The position numbers were made by a program, and so were the translations under genes. A DNA stretch of 64,000 bases, taken from contig OX597817.1 of NCBI GenBank assembly GCA_951406725.2, positions 78,554,001 through 78,618,000 of the forward strand, read 5' to 3'. The notes beneath the pieces are model-generated. The model did not search any database, was not told the origin of the DNA, and saw only the letters and a list, made by a program, of their open reading frames with translations. This DNA comes from Octopus vulgaris. Its lineage: Eukaryota. Positions 1,382 through 58,995 of the stretch are shown one piece after another; the stretch's first letter is position 1, and each line of letters begins with the position of its first letter.

Positions 1382-1572
1382 AATAACCATGTTCTCTAAC
1401 CAGCAGGATTCATTGCAGAAAATTATTTTCTGCAGAATTATTTCCAGTTTTTGGCACGACAAAACGAAGACATTTGAAATATATCCCCAAATATAACTGG
1501 CAAAACTATATACATGTTCAATCTCGTATGGATGCCCTGTGTATAGTTCTGCAAATTAATTTTTACTATGAC

Positions 1573-1646
1573 AGTCACACTGATGAATTGTGGCCATTTA
1601 TGTATGTAAATATGTAAGTGGTAACAATGAAATCTGGTATGTGACT
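1573..1646 (+). ncRNA. Type I hammerhead ribozyme motif
   Basis: agtcaca-CTGATGA-attgtggccattta..taagtggtaacaat-GAAA-tctggTA-tgtgact: perfect 7-bp stem I, long stem II, intact core, GUA cleavage triplet. Confidence 0.8.
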
Positions 1647-1790
1647 AATCATTATATTGTGTATCTTTTCATTTGTCTTGCTCGCTTACGTTCTGGCGTT
1701 TGCTAAATTTTCTTGAGAACAATCTGTTCTTAGTGGTCTAACCATATGGGGTCTACATCTAGCATATTGGATGTCAACGTGGTCATCCCT

Positions 1791-1831
<41 letters not shown>

Positions 1832-1972
1832 CACAAATGAGATACAAAGATTCTCCATTTAGAAGACACTTTGTTGTGTTCAAAAGATTCAAACTTAGAC
1901 TCTGATGTCTTCACAGGAGATCATACTGCAAGGTATATGAAATGTATGTGTGTGTGTGTGTATATATATATA

Positions 1973-3226
1973 TTGGGGTGTTTGGAAAGTAATTGTGCTT
2001 TACCAGAAAGGATATAAAGATAAGTGTAAACGATATTTATCTGAATAGGTCTCATCAAAAATGTAGTCACCATCATTTTCAACAACTGCAGTTCAATGGG
2101 AAAGTAATATTTTAATGCCATGCTCGAAGAAGCCTATTTCTGCTCCTGCAAAATGTCTGAAAGACTGCTTTCAACTACCTCTCTATTTTTGAATGTTTTA
2201 CCTCTTTTAAAATGTTCTAGTGATCGGAACGGATGGAAATCCATAGTTGCTAAGTTAAGTGAGTATGGAGAATGTAGAAGAACTTCCCATCCTAATGATC
2301 TTATTTTTTCATGGGCTTGTTTTGAAGAGCGTGGCCATACATTGTCATGCTGGAGAAAAGCACCTTTTCTGTTTACCAAAGCTGGCCACTTTCAGCATAA
2401 TTTTTCATTCACACTATCAAGTCGTTGGCTATAAACATCTGCATTGATGGCCCTTCCATGATCGAATAGCCCGTAATGGATGATGCCTTTCATTTTGTAC
2501 CAAACACAGAGCAAGGATTTTTGTGGATGGAGTTCTGGTTTTGGTGCTAGCACTGGCCTCTCATTACATGGTAAATTGTATTATCCATTTTTTGGCGTGA
2601 TGCAAAACCCATTTCCTATCACCTGTAACAATGCACTGCAGAAATGATAGCTTGTTATTCCTGGTTAAGAGTTTGCTGCAGTTGGTGAAACATTGTATCT
2701 GGTTCTCAAGCAAAATCTCATGGGGAACCCAAATTCTTTCATTGCATGTTTTCCCAACTACCTTGAGATGTCTATGGACAGTTGAACATGACATTAAATT
2801 TTTGTGCCAAATCTTTGGTGCTATGACATGGATCTGATACAGCAGTCAGATTCAAAAGGCCATCTTCCAGAGCAAGGATTGTTGGATATGTCACAATTGC
2901 CATCTTTTAGCCTTTTAAACAACAGCTGACATGTATGAGCTTGCATTGCATCTGGATACACTTCACAAATGTTTTTCATTGCTTCTGTTAGTGTTACTTT
3001 TCTTTCAAAATTCATACAATAAGCAATGGCGAATATGTTACTTCATAAAGTTCTTATCCTCCATGGGGATAATTACTGAGATAACCATGAGTGACACAGT
3101 GCTAGATAGAAGAGATGATATACTATTTCTAGACAGTTTCTGCCCATTCGATCTTGGCTCTGACACAGTTGGTTGATGCATATTTCATAGTGGTGAAAAA
3201 ATGAAATTACATTCCAAACACCCTAA
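1973..3226 (-). mobile_element. Full-length but decayed mariner transposon
   Basis: TIRs ttggggtgtttggaaagtaat / attacattccaaacaccctaa, flanked by TA. Frameshifted ORF pieces carry WVPHEI, IVTGDRKW, LQHDN and HSPYSLNLATMDF (WVPHEL, DEKW and YSPDLAP motifs). Confidence 0.95.
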
Positions 3227-3242
3227 TATATATATATATGTG

Positions 3243-3418
3243 TAAAAGGCAGGAAAGAGTTTCATAGACATGTCATAATTACTTTCAACAGCTGTTTCAT
3301 TAGGAATAGGCATAATTCTATAATTACATAATTATAGAATTAATTATGCTCACTCCTCATGAAACAACTGTTGAAAGTAACTAAATTATTCGTAATGTTT
3401 ATACTTATCTGCCTTTTA
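3243..3418. repeat. Imperfect fold-back palindrome carrying hammerhead 3' halves
   Basis: taaaaggcag..ttactttcaacagctgtttcat..ataattctataatta pairs with attatagaatt..atgaaacaactgttgaaagtaa..ctgcctttta. Confidence 0.85.
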
Positions 3419-6235: not shown

Positions 6236-6519
6236 TTATTAGTGTACATTTAAACACAAAAGAGTACTACCATCTATACTTATATATATATATGTACATA
6301 GATACATGCACATACAAACATTTACATACATACATACATACATATATATATATATACATATATAAATTATTAGTGTACATTTAAACACAAAAGAGGTGAG
6401 CCTTGACAGGCCGCCTTACATACTAGAAGGAACAGTCAAAATGTTCAAACCACTGTTCCTTCTAGTATGTAAAGCAACCTGTTAAGGGTCACATCTTTTG
6501 AGTTTAAATGTACACTAAT
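6236..6519. repeat. Fold-back palindrome (6369-6519) preceded by a partial direct repeat of its left end (6236-6274)
   Basis: attagtgtacatttaaacacaaaagag occurs twice in direct orientation and once inverted. Inner arms are ttacatactagaaggaacagt / actgttccttctagtatgtaa. Confidence 0.9.
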
Positions 6520-22574: not shown

Positions 22575-22576
<2 letters not shown>

Positions 22577-22872
22577 AAGAAAACAGAAAATGGAGAAGTT
22601 CTGATGAACAACAATTGACTTGCATCAGTTATTATTTATTAATTCAATACAAATAGACTGCATCCCATCTAACAGCTGTTTCTGCTTCCTATGTTGTATG
22701 GTATTGCCTTTGATATGCAAAAATATTTGAAAATATTGATCATATTTGGTAATAAAACCGACCAGAAACAGCTGTTAGATGGGATGCAGTCTATTTGTAT
22801 TGAATTAATAAATAATAACTGATGTAAGTCAATTGTTGTTCATCAGTACTTCTCAATTTGCTGTTATCTTTA
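22575..22872. repeat. Fold-back palindrome with ~110-bp arms
   Basis: 22575-22684 pairs with 22763-22872. Both arms terminate internally at GAAACAGCTGTTA, a hammerhead 3' half. Confidence 0.95.
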
Positions 22873-25495: not shown

Positions 25496-26317
25496 ATTTT
25501 GCATATATATGTGTGTGTGTATATGTGCGAAGCTTCTTTCAGTCCTAGTTGACAAAGTCCACCCAAAAGACTCCAGCCAACTTTGGGTCATGGCAGAAGA
25601 CACTTGCCCAAGGTGCCATGCAGTTGAACTGAACCTAGAACCATATTGTTGGGAAACAAACCTCTCAACACACAGCTACCCTTGTGCCTGTTTGAAAAGA
25701 TTTTTTAAAAAATCAATTGTTGATGAAATTCAAGCAAGCAGACCAAGTGTGATAGAAATTATAAAAAAAAAATATTCGTATGGGTATATTAAGAACTAAC
25801 CTCTAAAAGTAAATAAGTTATGTGGGAAGATTTACGGAGTTAACTTACTAGAAAACACTAAGTAAACACTTTCGGTTACTATCTTAAAACATATCTTTCT
25901 GCTCAACTAAATTATACTCAAATATGTTTATACACAAATATTATTAAACAAATGAGATATACATAAGATAAGATTAAATCTAAATTATGGTTTCTTTTAT
26001 TATTTTGATTAAAAGAACTGAGAGATCTGAACTTAGATCATTTTAATAAGCTCCTCTAAAATAATACTGACTATATTTTTGAATAGATACCAAGTTCTGT
26101 TTTGGTTGGTAATATTTTATGGTTGGTAACATAAAACTATACATTTAGCAAAACATATGTAAGTAAAAATTAGTTCTATAGTGAATGATAGGCATAACAA
26201 ATGACATTTCAAATAAGATAGTAAATCACAAAAAGTATTTAGTAAAATAAGTAGGTGCAAATATATATATATATATATATATGAATAGAATTTTTGAAGT
26301 GGTGTACAGATATTGTG

Positions 26318-26616
<299 letters not shown>

Positions 26617-31934: not shown

Positions 31935-32785
31935 TTGGATCATCCAATAAATAATGAGTTCTTTTTTCAATTGCAAGAACTAAAAGTCAGAGGGGGATGG
32001 GATAAACTACCTGCATCAACTTGCTATAAAAGCAGGTAGCAATTTTACCATGTACTTATTCTTAATGCAAGTTTTTGAAGAGTGCAGTTCGATTTTAACA
32101 GCTATTTTTTCAAAGCTATAATGAAAGTGACAAAAGAGAATATTCAGCATATTTTGCTTTATGAGTACATTAAAGGCAACAACACAATGAAAAATGTGAG
32201 AAATTTTAATGCAGTATATGGGGACCGGACAATAAGCAGAAGCCAGTGTCAACATCAGTCCCAGAAATTTTGAGCCAGAAATTACAGTCTAGAAGATGAG
32301 CCTCATCCTTGCTGATCTGTAGAGCTCAATGAGGATATCCTGCAAACCCTTGTGTAACAAAATCCCAGCATAACTGTTGAGGAATTAGCAGAGAAGCTTG
32401 GATTTGGTCATTCAACCATTCATCGACACCTGTGTGCCATCAGAAAAATCAGCAAATTGGGTGAATGGATTCCTCAAAAACTTTCAGAGTTTAATCACGT
32501 GCAGAGAGTGAATGTGTGCTCTTCTTTGCTGTCACATCTCACAAATGAACCTTCTTTGCTTTGGACAGAATAGTGACTGGTGAAGAGAAGTGGGTTCTCT
32601 GCAGAAATGTCAAGCACCAAAGACAGTGGGTAGGGAAAGGAGAAACACTGACTACCCAGGCTAAAGAAGGTCTTCACCCACGTAAGGCGTTTTTATCTGT
32701 TTGGTGGGATATGAAAGGTTTAACCTATTTTGAACTTTTAAATCCAAACCAAACAATAACAATGGAGATCTACTGCGAGCAGCTG
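31935..32785 (+). mobile_element. 3'-truncated mariner transposon
   Basis: Left end TA-ttggatcatccaataaataatg. MKVTKENIQHILLYEY N-terminal HTH region, WIPQKL, DRIVTGEEKWV and LHPRKAFLSVWWD, with stops and frameshifts. Confidence 0.92.
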
Positions 32786-37654: not shown

Positions 37655-37937
37655 GGAAAGTACCAGGACCTAGCTATTGAATTTCAGAGACTATGGAAAA
37701 TGTGGGTAAAATGTATCCCTGTATTTATAGGTGCATTGGATAACTATCCTTAAAGATCTTAACAGATGGATAGAAGAAATAGGTATAAAACCCAGTTTAG
37801 TACAGCTGTAGAAAATAGTGTTATTAGGGACAGCTAGAATACTTAGGAGGGTTCTTGGCATCTAAGGTTACTTGTAGCGTGATATTGTAGTGTGATTTTT
37901 TGTTTCCAACAATCTAATCTGTTGAGTGTATATACGA
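37655..37937 (+). mobile_element. R4/Dong-like LINE 3' fragment (another subfamily)
   Basis: KYQDLAIEFQRLWKMWVKCIPVFIGAL and VLLGTARILRRVLGI*. Flanked by (TAA)n. Confidence 0.8.
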
Positions 37938-37977
37938 AAATAATAATAATAATAATAATGATAACAACAATAATGAC

Positions 37978-38069
<92 letters not shown>

Positions 38070-38072
38070 TAA

Positions 38073-38418
38073 TACCTGGAAATAGAGGTAACTCAAATGT
38101 GGAATCTAAAAACAGAAACAGACTTGTAAATAGAGGTAACTCGTATGTGGAATCTAAAAACAGAAACAATTCCTATCATAGTAGGTGCATTAGGTATGAT
38201 AAAAAATATTCAGACAAATACATAACAGAAACACCAGGACTTACAAATATATATAACATACAGAAAATTGCACTACTTGCCACTGCACACATCCTATGCA
38301 AAACACTTTCAATACAGTAACCATAAGAGTATCACAACAAACCACAGTACATACCCAAGGCACACAGAGATGTGCTCGGCAGTGAAATGAAAGCAAGTTA
38401 TAAAAATAAAACTACTGA
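38073..38418 (+). mobile_element. R4/Dong-like LINE 3' fragment with a 5' tandem duplication
   Basis: Highly similar to 41433-41730; aaatagaggtaactc..tggaatctaaaaacagaaaca is present twice. Confidence 0.9.
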
Positions 38419-40320: not shown

Positions 40321-40768
40321 GATAAATGATAATGATAATAATAATCCTTTCTACTATAGGTACAAGGCCTGAAATTTGGCGGAGGGAGACAGTCAATTAC
40401 ATTAATCCCAGTACTTAACAGATACTTATTTCATCGACCCCTAAAGGATGAAAGGTAAAAGTCAACCTTGGCAGTATTTGAACTCAGAATGTAAAGATGG
40501 ACAAATGCTGGTAAGCATTTTGCTTGGTGTGCTAACAATTCTGCCAGCTTGCCATCTTAATAATAATAACAACAACAACAACAACAACAACAATAATACA
40601 TTCAAATTGCACAAGGCCAGTAATTTCAGGGGAAGGGGTAAGTTGATTTCATTGACCTCAATGATTAACTGGTACTTCTTTGACCCTGAGAAGATAAGAT
40701 GCAAGGTTGACCTCAGTGGAATTTGAACTCAGAATGTGAAGATGGATGAAATGAATGATTATAATAAA

Positions 40769-40832
<64 letters not shown>

Positions 40833-40836
<4 letters not shown>

Positions 40837-41730
40837 TAGAACAGCAACGAACCATGATAAAACGATGGCAAGAAAAGCCCCTTCATGGTAAATACTGGAC
40901 TAAACTAAACGCAAAAGAAATAGACAAAGAAAAATCCCAGCAATGGTTGAGAAGCTCAGGACTCAAAGCAGAAACAGAGGGATTTTTAATTGCAGCACAA
41001 GACCAAAGCCTCCCCACCAGAAATTACCAAAAACATGTAATGAAAAGAAATATTACAAGTAACTGCAGAATATGTGGAGATGGACAAGAAACAATAAATC
41101 ATATTATCTCTAGCTGCCCAGTCCTGGCTAAGAAGGAATATATTCACAGACATGACAGGGTTGGAACCTACATACATTGGAAGCTATGCCAACATTATGG
41201 AATAACAACAGAAAAAAGATGGTATAGGCACACACCAGAAAAGGTAACAGAAAACGAGAAAGCAACCATACTCTGGGATATGCCGATACACACAGATAGA
41301 GAAATTAAGGCCAACAGACCAGATATAGTTGTCAGAGATCATGAAGAAAAAAAATGCTTTCTAATTGATGTATCAATACCGGCTGATGACAACGTGTCTC
41401 TAAAAGAAATGGAGAAACTCTCAAAATACAAAGACCTGGAAATAGAGGTAACTAGAATGTGGAATCTGAAAACAGAAACAATTCCTATCATAGTAGGTGC
41501 ATTAGGCATGATAAAAAAATATTCAGACAAATACATAACAAAAACACCAGGACTTACAAACACATATAACATACAGAAAATTGCACTACTAGGCACTGCA
41601 CACATCCTACGCAGAACACTTTCCATACAATAACCATCAGAGCATCACAACAAATCACAGCACATACCCAAGGCACACAGAGCTGCACTCGGTAGTGAAG
41701 TGAAAGCACGCTATAAAAATAAAACTACTG
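40833..41730 (+). mobile_element. 5'-truncated R4/Dong-clade non-LTR retrotransposon (open C-terminal ~265 aa, stop at 41633)
   Basis: CCHC knuckle CRICGDGQETINHIISSC, RHD, restriction-like endonuclease motif NRPDIVV..LIDVSIP, and KLSKY. (TAA)n on both sides, as established for Dong elements. Confidence 0.95.
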
Positions 41731-42473: not shown

Positions 42474-42510
<37 letters not shown>

Positions 42511-42543
42511 GTAAAATAATATGTGGCAATTATTCGGTAGCTA

Positions 42544-42606
42544 AGATAAAACTCTGAGTTTCTGATGCCGAGATGGAAATCCACAACACCATCTCTTCAG
42601 TTATCT
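42544..42606 (-). ncRNA. Hammerhead ribozyme motif inside inverted repeat 42507-42640
   Basis: Minus strand: agataa-CTGAAGA-gatg..catc-a-GAAA-ctcagagTT-ttatct, with perfect 6-bp stem I and a pairable stem III. Confidence 0.7.
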
Positions 42607-42938
42607 GGCCATCTGAATAATTGTCACATATTTTACAGATAAATTTCCTCTATTTACATAATATTGAGGTCTCTTTCTTTCTTTTGTTATTTTACCGTTT
42701 TTACCAATATACATATATATATATTTGTTGAAATAGAAAGATGAATTTTCTTGTTACAGATTATTCAAAAGTTTAACCGATACCTGGGTAGCAAAAATCA
42801 CAGCAGAAAAACCACGGTTGGAGATAAGACCATTTGGTGTTGCAACCGTGCGTTGGTGCGGATAATTGAAGTTTAATATTATTAGTGAATGGAAGAAATG
42901 GAGTTGAACAAAGATTGTACAGAATTCCTTTTATTACA

Positions 42939-43019
42939 TTCTACACATGTTTCAAAGGCCACAAATTTCCCAAATTCTGATTAAATAAGGGTACCATATT
43001 GTGGCTTTCTCTTCAGGAA
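42939..43019 (-). ncRNA. Hammerhead ribozyme motif (left arm of palindrome)
   Basis: Reverse complement of the 43193-43272 motif. Confidence 0.7.
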
Positions 43020-43192
43020 AACAGGAATTCCGTTGACAGAACAAAACAAAACAGAGGCGCAGCAACGCAATTCGAACGAGGACGCTCCTTAAGAGCCCAT
43101 GGAGTTCAGCCATGGGCCCTTAAGGAGCATCCTCGTTTGAATTGCGTTGCTGCGCCTCTGTTTTGTTTTGTTCTGTCAACGGAATTCCTGTT

Positions 43193-43272
43193 TTCCTGAA
43201 GAGAAAGCCACAATATGGTACCCTTATTTAATCAGAATTTGGAAATTTGTGGCCTTTGAAACATGTGTAGAA
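43193..43272 (+). ncRNA. Hammerhead ribozyme motif (right arm of palindrome)
   Basis: ttc-CTGAAGA-gaaagccacaa..ttgtggccttt-GAAA-catgtgTA-gaa. Confidence 0.7.
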
Positions 43273-43327
43273 TGTAATAAAAGGAATTCTGTACAATCTT
43301 CGTTCAACTCCATTTCTTCCATTCACT

Positions 43328-43378
<51 letters not shown>

Positions 43379-43617
43379 TATGAATGTTTGTTTTATGTTC
43401 AGTTATAATAAAAACAATTCTACATTAATTTGAAGGTCTACTCCATACTTTTATTGAGTACAAAATCTAATCAAGGCTTAGCTGGCTGAAACTTCAGAGT
43501 CACTGTCTATAGTATAGACAGCACAGTGGTGTTCCAGGATGACTGCAGCTGCATGGCTGAAATGAATAAAAGAATAAATATATATATAAAATTGTCTGAC
43601 CTCTAGCTGTTAATCGG

Positions 43618-43670
<53 letters not shown>

Positions 43671-44489
43671 TACTATTATTATTATTACTATTTATTATTA
43701 TTCTGATCCCCCTAGTCGCTACTCTGTTTACTATTTCAGCCTCGCCACGTTTTTGCATATTCTGTATAATTCATTAGTTATCGTTATAGATATTTAAGAT
43801 CTCCCTTACAGGGCTGATCGAAATGGCCGCCGATTCTTCGCGGGGTGGCCACTTTCTCTCTTCTCTTCCCTTCTCTCCCCCCTCTTTTACATTGTCTGGA
43901 CTCCTCTCTTCCTACTCCTCTCCATGGCTATGCATACTTAAGCTAGTAACCTGCCTCATTCTTGATTTCGAATTCCTTTTGCCAAGTCTGTCCGTAAACG
44001 AAGTGATCCCAAGATAAGAAATCTTTGAACTTTAATTCATCCCGTATCTCTACCAGTAATATTTTTCATGCAAAATTGTCTGACCTCTAGCTGTTAATCG
44101 GTTTATTACTCATCATTATGTGCTGATAATTTCTCTATTTCTCCACCGTCCCCCCTAAATATCCCTTTATTATTATGTGCTGCGATAATTTTGCCCATCC
44201 AAGTCATCGCTCTCTCCCCTATCAACCTTCGCATATTCGCGGCGCGCCCTCCCTACCCACCCCCACCACCAATACCGGATATCTCTATTTTGCTCCATCT
44301 ATACCGGATGTCGTTTTCTCCCACCACCATTATAGGTGTCTACTCCTTGAACCCCCTCTCTTCAATATGCTATTTCACCATGCATTACCCCTCTCTCGAT
44401 ATCCTACGTTCTACTTGCCTAGAACCTGTCATCATTTCTCTGAACCACCCCTCCCACTGGTGCTCCCCTATATTTCTGCACCACCCCCC

Positions 44490-44746
44490 CACATAAAAAG
44501 CACCATCCGAACGTGGCCGATGCCAGACCCCTCTGGCACCTGTGCAGGTGGCACGTAAAAAACACCCACTACACTCGCGGAGTGGTTGGCGTTAGGAAGG
44601 GCATCCAGCTGTAGAAACACTGCCAGACTAGACTGGAGCCTGGGGCAGTCCCGAGCTCCCCAGAACCCGGTCGAAATCGTCCAACCCGTGCTAGCGCGGA
44701 AAACGGACGTTAAACGATGATGATGATGATGATGATGATGATGATA
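44490..44746 (+). mobile_element. RTE-like retroposon 3' end
   Basis: Same (GAT)n-tailed block; CpG-rich. Confidence 0.75.
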
Positions 44747-44893
44747 TACATAGACAGGCTGCTGATATTTATAGTGTGTTAAACACTTTCAGTATTTAAA
44801 TTAGGAACTCCTTCATAGAGTAACTGCAACATTTTTTGAGTATATAAACAGTTTGGCTGCTTGCTTCTCTGGAGACTGTCAGAATGATGTAGA

Positions 44894-44938
44894 CTTCTCT
44901 GATGAGAACATAATAGGGTTTGAAAATTGATTAAGGTT
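44894..44938 (+). ncRNA. Minimal hammerhead ribozyme motif
   Basis: cttct-CTGATGA-gaac-ataatagg-gttt-GAAA-attgatTA-agg. A homologous decayed copy lies on the minus strand at 54806-54852. Confidence 0.7.
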
Positions 44939-45024
44939 GTTTGTAATATTTTTCAGTTTGTGGAGAGAAATGGCTAAAATTTGTCTGGTTTATAATTATA
45001 CCATATGTTACATATATGTATATA

Positions 45025-45897
45025 TGAGATGGTATCAAAAAGTTCTCAGACTAGTTATGCTTAATAAGAAATAACTTATTTATTTAAGTTTTAACATTAT
45101 ATCCTTCAAAATAGTCACCTTGCAAAGCAATATACTTATTCCAGTGTTCCTGCCACTTTAGGAATCCAGCCTAAACAAGTCAAGGACCTTCTGCAATTTT
45201 TCCTGGATTTTAACAATAGTCTTAAAACAGCAACCTCTGAATTGCATTTTCATCTTGGGGAAGGGATGGAAGTCTGCAGGTGCTAAATCTGGCAAATAGG
45301 GTAGATGTGGAAGTGATACTTGGTTGCTTTTGGAGAGAAACTCACGAGAGAGGAGAGCTCAGTGAAAGGGTTACATTGTCGTCGTGAAAAAAATCCAATT
45401 CTTTGTGCTCCAGAGTTCCAGTCACTTTCGACAAATGTTTCCTCCAAATGCTTCCAAACATCACAGTAGAACTCTTGATTGATGGTCTGGCCCTGGGGGA
45501 TGAAGTTTTGATGCACAATACCACATTTCTGAGGATGACACTCGTGACAAGTCTTCCAGATTGCACATCATCTTCCAGAGACATACTACTACTGCTTTTG
45601 AAGCACCCAAGCCACTTGCGACATTGTGTAGGACCCATTGCCTTCTTACTCTAAGCTTACTGAAGCATGTTCAATGTCTCTATAGCAGACTTTCCAAGTT
45701 TAAAGCAAAATTTCACGTTGGAATTTTTGTTCCGGTCCGTGAAAAAAATCGCAGACTACAGCAATCATGTGATCACAAAAACACAAATCTCACAATGTCA
45801 CTTGGCACACTGCTAGCTCTCACTGTACACACAACTGTGTGCTGCCATCAATTGGTGTGTTACAAAACTAGTCTGGGAACTTTTTGATACCATCTCG
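45025..45897 (-). mobile_element. Internally deleted mariner element
   Basis: TA-flanked TIRs tgagatggtatcaaaaagttctcagactagtt / aactagtctgggaactttttgataccatctcg. Transposase remnants SLEDDVQSGRL and FIPQGQTINQEFYCDV. Confidence 0.92.
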
Positions 45898-45907
45898 TAT
45901 ATATATG

Positions 45908-45984
<77 letters not shown>

Positions 45985-45990
<6 letters not shown>

Positions 45991-46245
45991 TGATAAAAAT
46001 GGTAAGACAACAAAAGAATGAAAGAGACCTCAATATTATATAAATAGAGGAATTTATCTGTAAATATAATATGTGACAATTATTCGGTAGCCATGATAAA
46101 ACTCTGAGTTTCAGATGCCAAGATGGTATAACGCTCATTTTCATAGAATTTTTTCCAATGGCGGCATGGATTTCCACCTTGGCATCCAAAACTCGGAGTT
46201 TTATCATGGCTACTGAATAAGTGTCACATATTACATTTACAGATA
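45985..46245. repeat. Fold-back copy of the 42507-42710 hammerhead-associated family
   Basis: Arms 46055-46135 / 46176-46245. 45985-46085 is the reverse complement of 42615-42710. A third fragment lies at 57917-57965. Confidence 0.9.
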
Positions 46246-49232: not shown

Positions 49233-49487
49233 TAGGATGTGTGCAGTGCTAAGTAATGCAATTTTCTGTATGTTATATGCATTTGTAAGTCCATAACAAA
49301 AACACCAGGACTTACAAATATATATATAACATACAGAAAATTGCACTACTGGTCACTGCACACATCCTATGCAAAATACTTTCAATACAGTAACCATAAG
49401 AGCATCAAACCAAACCACAGCACATACCCAAGGCACACAGAGCTGCGCTCGGTAGTGAAGTGAAAGTACGTTGTAAAGATAAAACTA

Positions 49488-57844: not shown

Positions 57845-57919
<75 letters not shown>

Positions 57920-57966
57920 CTGTAAATATAATATGTGATAATTATTCGGTAGCCATGATAAAACTG

Positions 57967-58995
57967 AAAGAAAGGAGTTAATATGGCTGGCTCCCAATTT
58001 CAATATGATGCCAGGGTTAGTTTCTTCATGATGCTCATCAGCATCAGTAGGGCAAGCAGAACTTTGATTTTGTCTCCTGTGGTTGGAAACCAATCACTGC
58101 TATATCTGGGTCGGACATGCTGCAGATGGCTTTCAGCATAGTCATTCATTTTGTCTGCTATATATTGGAACATTTCATCTGTCAAACCTCATGCGAGATT
58201 TCCAATGGTAAACTTCCATGTTTAAGGTTTGCATTTATGCCGAATATACCAGTAAATCCATGCCATCAGACGAAATTGTTTCTCGCTCACCACATGACAT
58301 ACTGTTGTCCAGGGCCATTCACTGCTGCCCCCTTGTACCTTTGATTCCCCAGAATATTACCATCACTATCAGAATCATCTGATTCTGAACTAGGAAAATA
58401 CTCATTTTCTGAGTCATTGTCCGAACTGGATGAAACAATTGGTGAGGTGGTGGAGCTTGGTGTTGCTTGGCATGACAACCATAAATTTGATGAAACAGGG
58501 TGCGACAAAGAAGCTAACAGAGCCAGAGTAGCAGGATGCAACAATGATACTGATGGTACCAGAGTAGTAGAACATGAGGAAGCAAGAGTGATATGATGTG
58601 ATGATGAACGTGACGAAGCCGATGTGGTGGGATGTAATGATGAAGTCGGTGTGGTGGGACGCAGCCGCAAATTATGTGCAGGATGAGAAAAATCAGCTAC
58701 AGCAGAATCCCTGCAAGCACTGGCAGTATGAGAGGATGAACATAGATTAGTTTTGAGTTGACTGGAAGCCATAATGCTAATGTTGTATAATCACCAAAAC
58801 CACAGCTTATACAGAATAAAGCTTACATCCGGGCTGTAAATATTTACATGAAACATCTAACCAGCCTACCAGTCGGCCGGTTAGCTGTTTCTAATTCATG
58901 TGACAGGCTCTAAGTCAGGTGGCATATAACTATGCTGACCGATTTAAAGCATGTACATTGTGTGAGTAAATTTACGTCAACCCAATTTAAAACGG
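57967..58995 (-). mobile_element. piggyBac transposon 5' remnant
   Basis: Terminus TTAA-ccgttt at 58999-58990. Ser/acidic N-terminus (SSSDNDSENEYFPSSESDDSDSD), FTGIFGI, and NDYA..WFPTTGDKIKVLLALLMLMSIMKKLTLASY, typical of piggyBac transposase N-terminal regions. Confidence 0.85.

Follow-up and report, generated by a model that had tools for sequence, protein, structure and literature searches.

Head-to-head hairpins of a hammerhead-bearing repeat family in Octopus vulgaris resemble the inverted insertions of Penelope-like elements

We analysed a window of 64 kb from the genome of Octopus vulgaris, that is, the whole stretch from position 78,554,001 to 78,618,000 of contig OX597817.1 (GCA_951406725.2), and found that three copies of one repeat family, here called A, B and C, are ordinary retroelement debris. 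With a probability of about three in four, all three are stubs left by insertion of the pseudo-LTR, or terminal repeat, of a Penelope-like element (PLE) that bears an endonuclease; overall, they would have formed by two primings and subsequent joining. Each of the two hairpins, A and B, reads as two pieces, one with a tail and one without, that are fused head to head in (TA)n. Across the copies in the window the outer ends are constant, whereas both inner ends differ. PLEs are already known for this layout, which is not a new phenomenon.

Results

The window is AT-rich, microsatellite-laden animal DNA. Comparing it with itself by blastn yields three family members and no others (Table 1), as the initial annotation had proposed when it assigned these copies to one sequence family. 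The arms of A (42506–42535 and 42615–42641) are 87% alike in this comparison, those of B differ in 8 of 70 aligned letters, and C matches the left arm of B in 48 of 49 letters. Both hairpins fold far better than expected, with −46.5 kcal/mol for A (z = −6.7) and −108.6 kcal/mol for B (z = −20.3); in neither case did any of 200 shuffles fold as well. All three copies begin with the same outer base beside (TA)n, and TA tracts adjoin all three outer ends and both tail ends. The inner end of C adjoins a decayed piggyBac-type transposase relic (57966–58790, minus strand; PF13843, E = 3.6e-05 with stops read as X).

Table 1. Positions of the family copies and their parts, counted from the first letter of the window.
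Feature	Position	Strand	Description
Hairpin A	42507–42640		
A, inverted piece	42507–42617	−	111 nt, without tail; extends from the outer end at (TA)n and includes the entire hammerhead
A, type I hammerhead motif	42544–42606	−	descriptor site at 42600
A, sense piece	42615–42640	+	heavily 5'-truncated, 26 nt before the tail, small deletion
A, one-sided tail	42641–42708	+	68 nt, ends in TA tract
B, one-sided tail	45989–46055	−	67 nt, ends in (TA/TACA)n
Hairpin B	46056–46244		
B, sense piece	46056–46126	−	71 nt, 5'-truncated, begins in the 3' strand of stem II
B, "loop"	46127–46157	+	element sequence from upstream of the hammerhead, across a probable 20-nt deletion
B, outer part of inverted piece	46158–46244	+	without tail, outer end as in A
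Copy C	57918–57965	−	48-nt stub without tail, outer end as in A and B at (TA)n

The initial annotation placed a whole hammerhead inside A, and A does contain a complete type I motif, on the minus strand. It consists of a 6-bp stem I, the CUGAAGA core, and a 4-bp stem II that also has an internal loop and a further helix of 4 bp; a single unpaired base precedes GAAA, and stem III is short and near-palindromic (stems of 6, 4 and 3 bp). Our own hammerhead descriptor finds two sites in the window, the one in A and another at 1580, compared with two hits in total over 100 shuffled windows and none in 5000 shuffles of A. The site at 1580 lies in a second complete type I motif (about 1568–1650, plus strand) with stems of 7, 5 and 2 bp and a long, AT-rich stem II. 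Rfam returned no hammerhead among its five matches up to E = 10 in 42508–43335, nor among the best 150 of 307 matches across the window, which are merely microsatellite-driven microRNA matches under the gathering score. The best fold of the motif in A (−16.2 kcal/mol) exceeds its active-like fold (−7.1 kcal/mol) in stability by 9 kcal/mol. By its motif, A is a candidate hammerhead ribozyme; the hammerhead motifs of PLEs have been reported as weak or protein-assisted (PMC11167929; PMC4209133).

An ATG stands at the start of stem II (42592), and its frame stops at codon 21 in both A and B. The nearly open frame that spans arm and tail lacks significance: at most one stop also occurs in 1319 of 5000 shuffles. 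A homolog search with the 45-residue frame of the stub gave no match at E up to 1, which is weak evidence, and no Pfam match to reverse transcriptase or GIY-YIG was found in the 85 scanned of the 700 window frames of at least 45 codons.

A feature that went unmentioned in the initial annotation is that both hairpins extend beyond the inverted repeat on one side only. These tails of 67–68 nt are identical in 61 of 71 aligned columns, both end in a TA tract, and in A as well as in B the tail is located on the shorter piece. Read with the tail last, each hairpin is an antisense piece, then a sense piece, then the tail. The two pieces of A overlap by three letters (42615–42617), and some contigs of the family (see below) have additional letters within the stretch that forms the sense piece of A.

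To see the family beyond the window, we used contigs of four public runs (X4, X1, X2 and X8) aligned to 42504–42714 at 82% likeness, amounting to 4574, 8291, 3813 and 171 contig records, respectively. X8 is a small run that may be RNA and is silent on expression. Summed depth reaches 1–2.5 million in the three large runs against 21–107 for their single contigs, which points to some ten thousand copies by order of magnitude, although the depth ratio is no copy number. A 25-letter family pattern had no match in metagenome contigs. Behind 42617, other sequence continues in 30, 46 and 27 contigs (X4, X1 and X2), and before 42615 the 3' half of the sense hammerhead enters in 19 contigs of X4. Hence, the unit in sense orientation reads as upstream sequence, hammerhead, arm and tail, and the upstream sequence before the 5' strand of the hammerhead is a U-rich tract ending in CAG. 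TA-rich loose ends lie behind 42711 in all four runs. At 42688, 34 contigs of X1 and 30 of X2 depart from the tail into a different ending of about 20 letters followed by (TA)n, which suggests a subfamily with another tail end.

The same contigs bear on whether the hairpins could be copies of a DNA transposon, either a MITE or a fold-back element, that has fixed terminal inverted repeats (TIRs) and a TA target. Identical inverted letters do end both hairpins next to TA, and a transposase relic does adjoin C. That relic, however, is of the piggyBac type and is touched by the inner end of C, while in A and B a one-sided tail lies outside the inverted repeat, in place of a uniform TIR-bounded structure. 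If the form of A were fixed, its junction would be crossed at full contig depth. Instead, depth at 42617 relative to 42542 is 2.4% in X4, 0.9% in X1 and 2.1% in X2 (7.9% in the small run X8). Depth of about 1–2%, together with nine other joints, means that the family is no fixed MITE, and the initial annotation was right to set fixed MITE TIRs aside. With the many joints and the hammerhead motif also speaking against it, a DNA transposon origin is extremely improbable.

Among the 12 joint rows listed of 18, ten read as head-to-head, nine of them distinct and at single-contig depth (36–55). A head-to-head inverted copy adjoining a 5'-truncated copy is found, then, in A, in B and in nine further joints. 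The inverted piece ends at 42525, 42535, 42541, 42562, 42571, 42605 or 42617, and filler letters occur at many of the joints. Three joints have a second piece that starts within the tail (42646, 42655 and 42667), so that no hairpin results. We left out of the count an internal skip (42552–42587), an unclassified row (42602–42544) and rows in which the sequence between the parts is given as not known. The joints are a small, filtered sample of short contigs (15 listed of 26 in another listing) that shows variation and not frequencies; joints with a short side at a likeness under 95 can arise from repeats. The contigs come from two coded organisms (A and B in that coding), which hold at most 0.39 of the sampled words. 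The idea of the initial annotation that copies of one family turn at different points is therefore half right: junctions do vary between copies, but they are no simple fold-back and join two pieces with separately variable inner ends.

The second hairpin needs a different reading from the one it was first given, in which its arms extend into stem II. The inverted copy of B passes beyond the hammerhead, probably across a 20-nt deletion. Its match extends nine letters beyond what A suggests, because, at the equivalents of 42585, 42586 and 42588, B has family variants (10–24% of depth in X4, X1 and X2). Compared by eye, the 31-letter loop agrees with the X2 loose-end consensus behind 42617 in 14 of 16 and 18 of 26 letters, and the last seven of those 26 agree also with the X1 consensus. 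After this comparison we dropped the view that the loop is foreign filler; exact 12-mers of the loop have no match elsewhere in the window. We infer that B lost 20 nt, including the CUGAAGA core, between two short direct repeats (42589–42594 and 42609–42614 in A numbering). The register of the loop fits such a loss between repeats flanking the core, which makes the inverted piece longer than that of A. How far the shorter, tail-side piece is truncated determines the stem length, and each insertion has two breakpoints, not one.

The deletion in B lends some weight to the possibility that the same element was inserted as longer head-to-head palindromes, and that their centres varied afterwards by deletion of the unstable palindrome centre. 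The internal skip from 42552 to 42587 in the contigs points the same way, as does the young neighbouring hairpin at 42876–43335, which is almost free of a loop. PLE copies have, however, been described as 5'-truncated on insertion (PMC8969392), and the filler letters also argue, weakly, against later trimming, being compatible with repair. We regard this explanation as unlikely; the hairpins were probably made at insertion rather than trimmed later. As B shows deletions inside these structures, some of the variation among junctions may be due to damage after insertion.

The arms of B also speak to a model with a single priming, in which either newly made DNA or an antisense template would fold back and serve as its own primer, so that the second arm copies the first. 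Self-priming has been proposed for PLEs (PMC3846280). Both arms of B share non-majority states of the family at the equivalents of 42544 (T, 19–37%), 42572 (G, 32–41%) and 42570 (A, about 2%; all in X4, X1 and X2), and four of their eight differences are of CpG type. One joint, 42541 to 42615 with one letter between, is a near-perfect snap-back. The shared variants fit two repeats on one transcript equally well; together with the CpG-type differences they suit a common template without separating the models. We also considered that the arms of B come from two subfamilies; the arm variants are mixed. In both A and B, however, the tail belongs to the shorter piece and is missing from the longer one, which means that the short piece cannot have been copied from the long one. 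Self-copying cannot explain the three joints that begin inside the tail without forming a hairpin. It is quite improbable, even less likely than later trimming, that self-priming made the hairpins.

Several other repeats surround the family. A second, unrelated and younger hairpin (42725–43335; arms in 42876–43335 with 223 identities, four mismatches and almost no loop) carries hammerhead-like cores, one per arm, and extends on one side only by about 150 nt; this extension faces the tail of A across a TA tract of about 16 nt. An inverted pair of another family with a hammerhead core (465–535 and 1012–1082, 93% alike) has a complete motif only at the left; its members are separated by a (TAT)n-centred hairpin (537–753) and another repeat. 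A 292-codon frame at 40755–41633 (plus strand) encodes the C-terminal part of a non-LTR retrotransposon (zf-RVT, E = 2.7e-06), which we take to be R4/Dong-like. It sits between (TAA)n-type tracts, and short related pieces occur near 37883–38320 and 49233–49369, the latter as an inverted pair.

Mariner/Tc1-type relics lie at 1961–3238 (inverted ends and HTH_48), 32358–32785 (Transposase_1 at 32549–32785) and 45009–45913 (51-nt inverted ends in TA context, no Pfam match). Isolated hairpins, several of them near microsatellites, are found at 22575–22872, 26261–26569, 6369–6519, 3276–3383 and 1300–1385. A 48-nt direct repeat (43588–43634 and 44072–44119, 94%) surrounds a 450-nt segment starting with (TAT)n.

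Discussion

Our results favour two primings, one on each strand. As the shorter piece bears the tail, and as some second pieces do not even reach the tail's length, the second piece is not a copy of the first, which is what favours two primings over one. The constant outer ends agree with two start sites of reverse transcription. In the process that we propose, the GIY-YIG nuclease of the element would nick both strands of an AT tract, and each nick would prime reverse transcription from one internal start site, either the tail end or the boundary between arm and tail. Both cDNAs would stop early, at variable points, and would then be joined at a short microhomology or with a few filler bases, leaving a stem as long as the shorter piece. 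Later deletions, such as the 20 nt in B, and CpG decay would add noise. The copies themselves would be passive, with the enzyme supplied in trans or by a longer parent. For the step of two primings alone, we put the odds slightly better than even.

A comparable event is known from L1 elements, whose 5' inversions arise by twin priming: primings on opposite strands, a variable inversion point and a join at microhomology. Twin priming of L1 inverts without duplicating, whereas here both pieces copy one stretch. Two repeats or two RNAs are therefore required.

It is also conceivable, if rather doubtful, that the family, with its thousands of copies bearing subfamily markers, naturally records PLE inverted insertions that arose from two separate primings, possibly of two RNAs on an enzyme dimer, and not from self-priming. 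This view is based on inner ends that vary independently and on second pieces that can be shorter than the tail. In the accessible text of the PLE papers cited here, we found no statement linking the variation of inner ends to two separate primings.

How PLE inverted insertions form has been named as an open question (PMC8557442). The best use of the family is as a high-copy test bed for this question: it is very abundant, has fixed outer ends and carries subfamily markers, and hence allows a genome-wide test of two primings, self-priming and later deletion. Labelling such hairpins correctly is also worthwhile, because they can pass for MITEs or microRNA precursors.

Octopus annotations abound in Penelope families (PMC13282606; PMC8967140). 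The O. vulgaris repeat paper among these (PMC13282606) counts Penelope families, and its main text contains the words "hairpin" and "ribozyme" zero times; its supplements may hold the family. Within the reach of our literature search, outside which lie Repbase, Dfam and subscription papers, we found neither a paper on the family nor a genome-wide plot of PLE inversion junctions.

As a frame with reverse transcriptase and GIY-YIG is not linked to the family, we describe it as working like a PLE terminal repeat, from which it is very probably derived. In PLEs, an inverted copy next to a 5'-truncated copy, a one-sided tail and (TA)n targets have been described (Craig et al. 2021, PMC8557442; Arkhipova et al. 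2013, PMC3846280). A and B share with endonuclease-positive PLEs this head-to-head layout, the tail at one end (in both hairpins), the (TA)n targets and the short overlap at the junction; the type I hammerhead motif and the AT-rich or microsatellite target agree as well. The tail is longer here, at 67–68 nt compared with the published 30–40 nt, and, unlike endonuclease-positive PLEs, the copies are terminal-repeat stubs in which no coding frame was found. The direct tandems of partial-tandem pseudo-LTRs are absent among the three window copies, and target-site duplications are unreadable in (TA)n.

Hammerheads have been detected within pseudo-LTRs that belong to metazoan PLEs (Cervera and De la Pena 2014, PMC4209133). 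The motif in A has the same type I topology and short palindromic helix III, and dispersed single motifs as well as pairs on opposite strands occur in both. The unpaired base stands before GAAA here but after position 9 in PLE hammerheads, and compared with the minimal motif, helix II has an internal loop and helix III is longer (PMC4209133). In Penelope of D. virilis, the end of the intron maps to the 5' end of helix I (PMC4209133), an end which our U-rich upstream sequence with its CAG appears to resemble.

With the Anolis Poseidon element PAc in vitro, reverse transcription begins at two internal positions between which the tail lies, and both strands of AT-rich DNA are cut and extended (Frangieh et al. 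2024, PMC11167929). Our family is similar in that a tail downstream of the hammerhead lies between two fixed ends, and in its AT-rich targets and its ATG at the start of stem II. It differs in the stop at codon 21 of the ATG frame and in its spacing, and it is not known to encode a protein. Non-LTR retrozymes, which are short non-coding repeats with type I hammerheads akin to PLE terminal repeats (bioRxiv 10.64898/2026.07.22.740005), form head-to-tail tandems. The copies described here are arranged head to head or stand singly, and none of the three in the window is in tandem.
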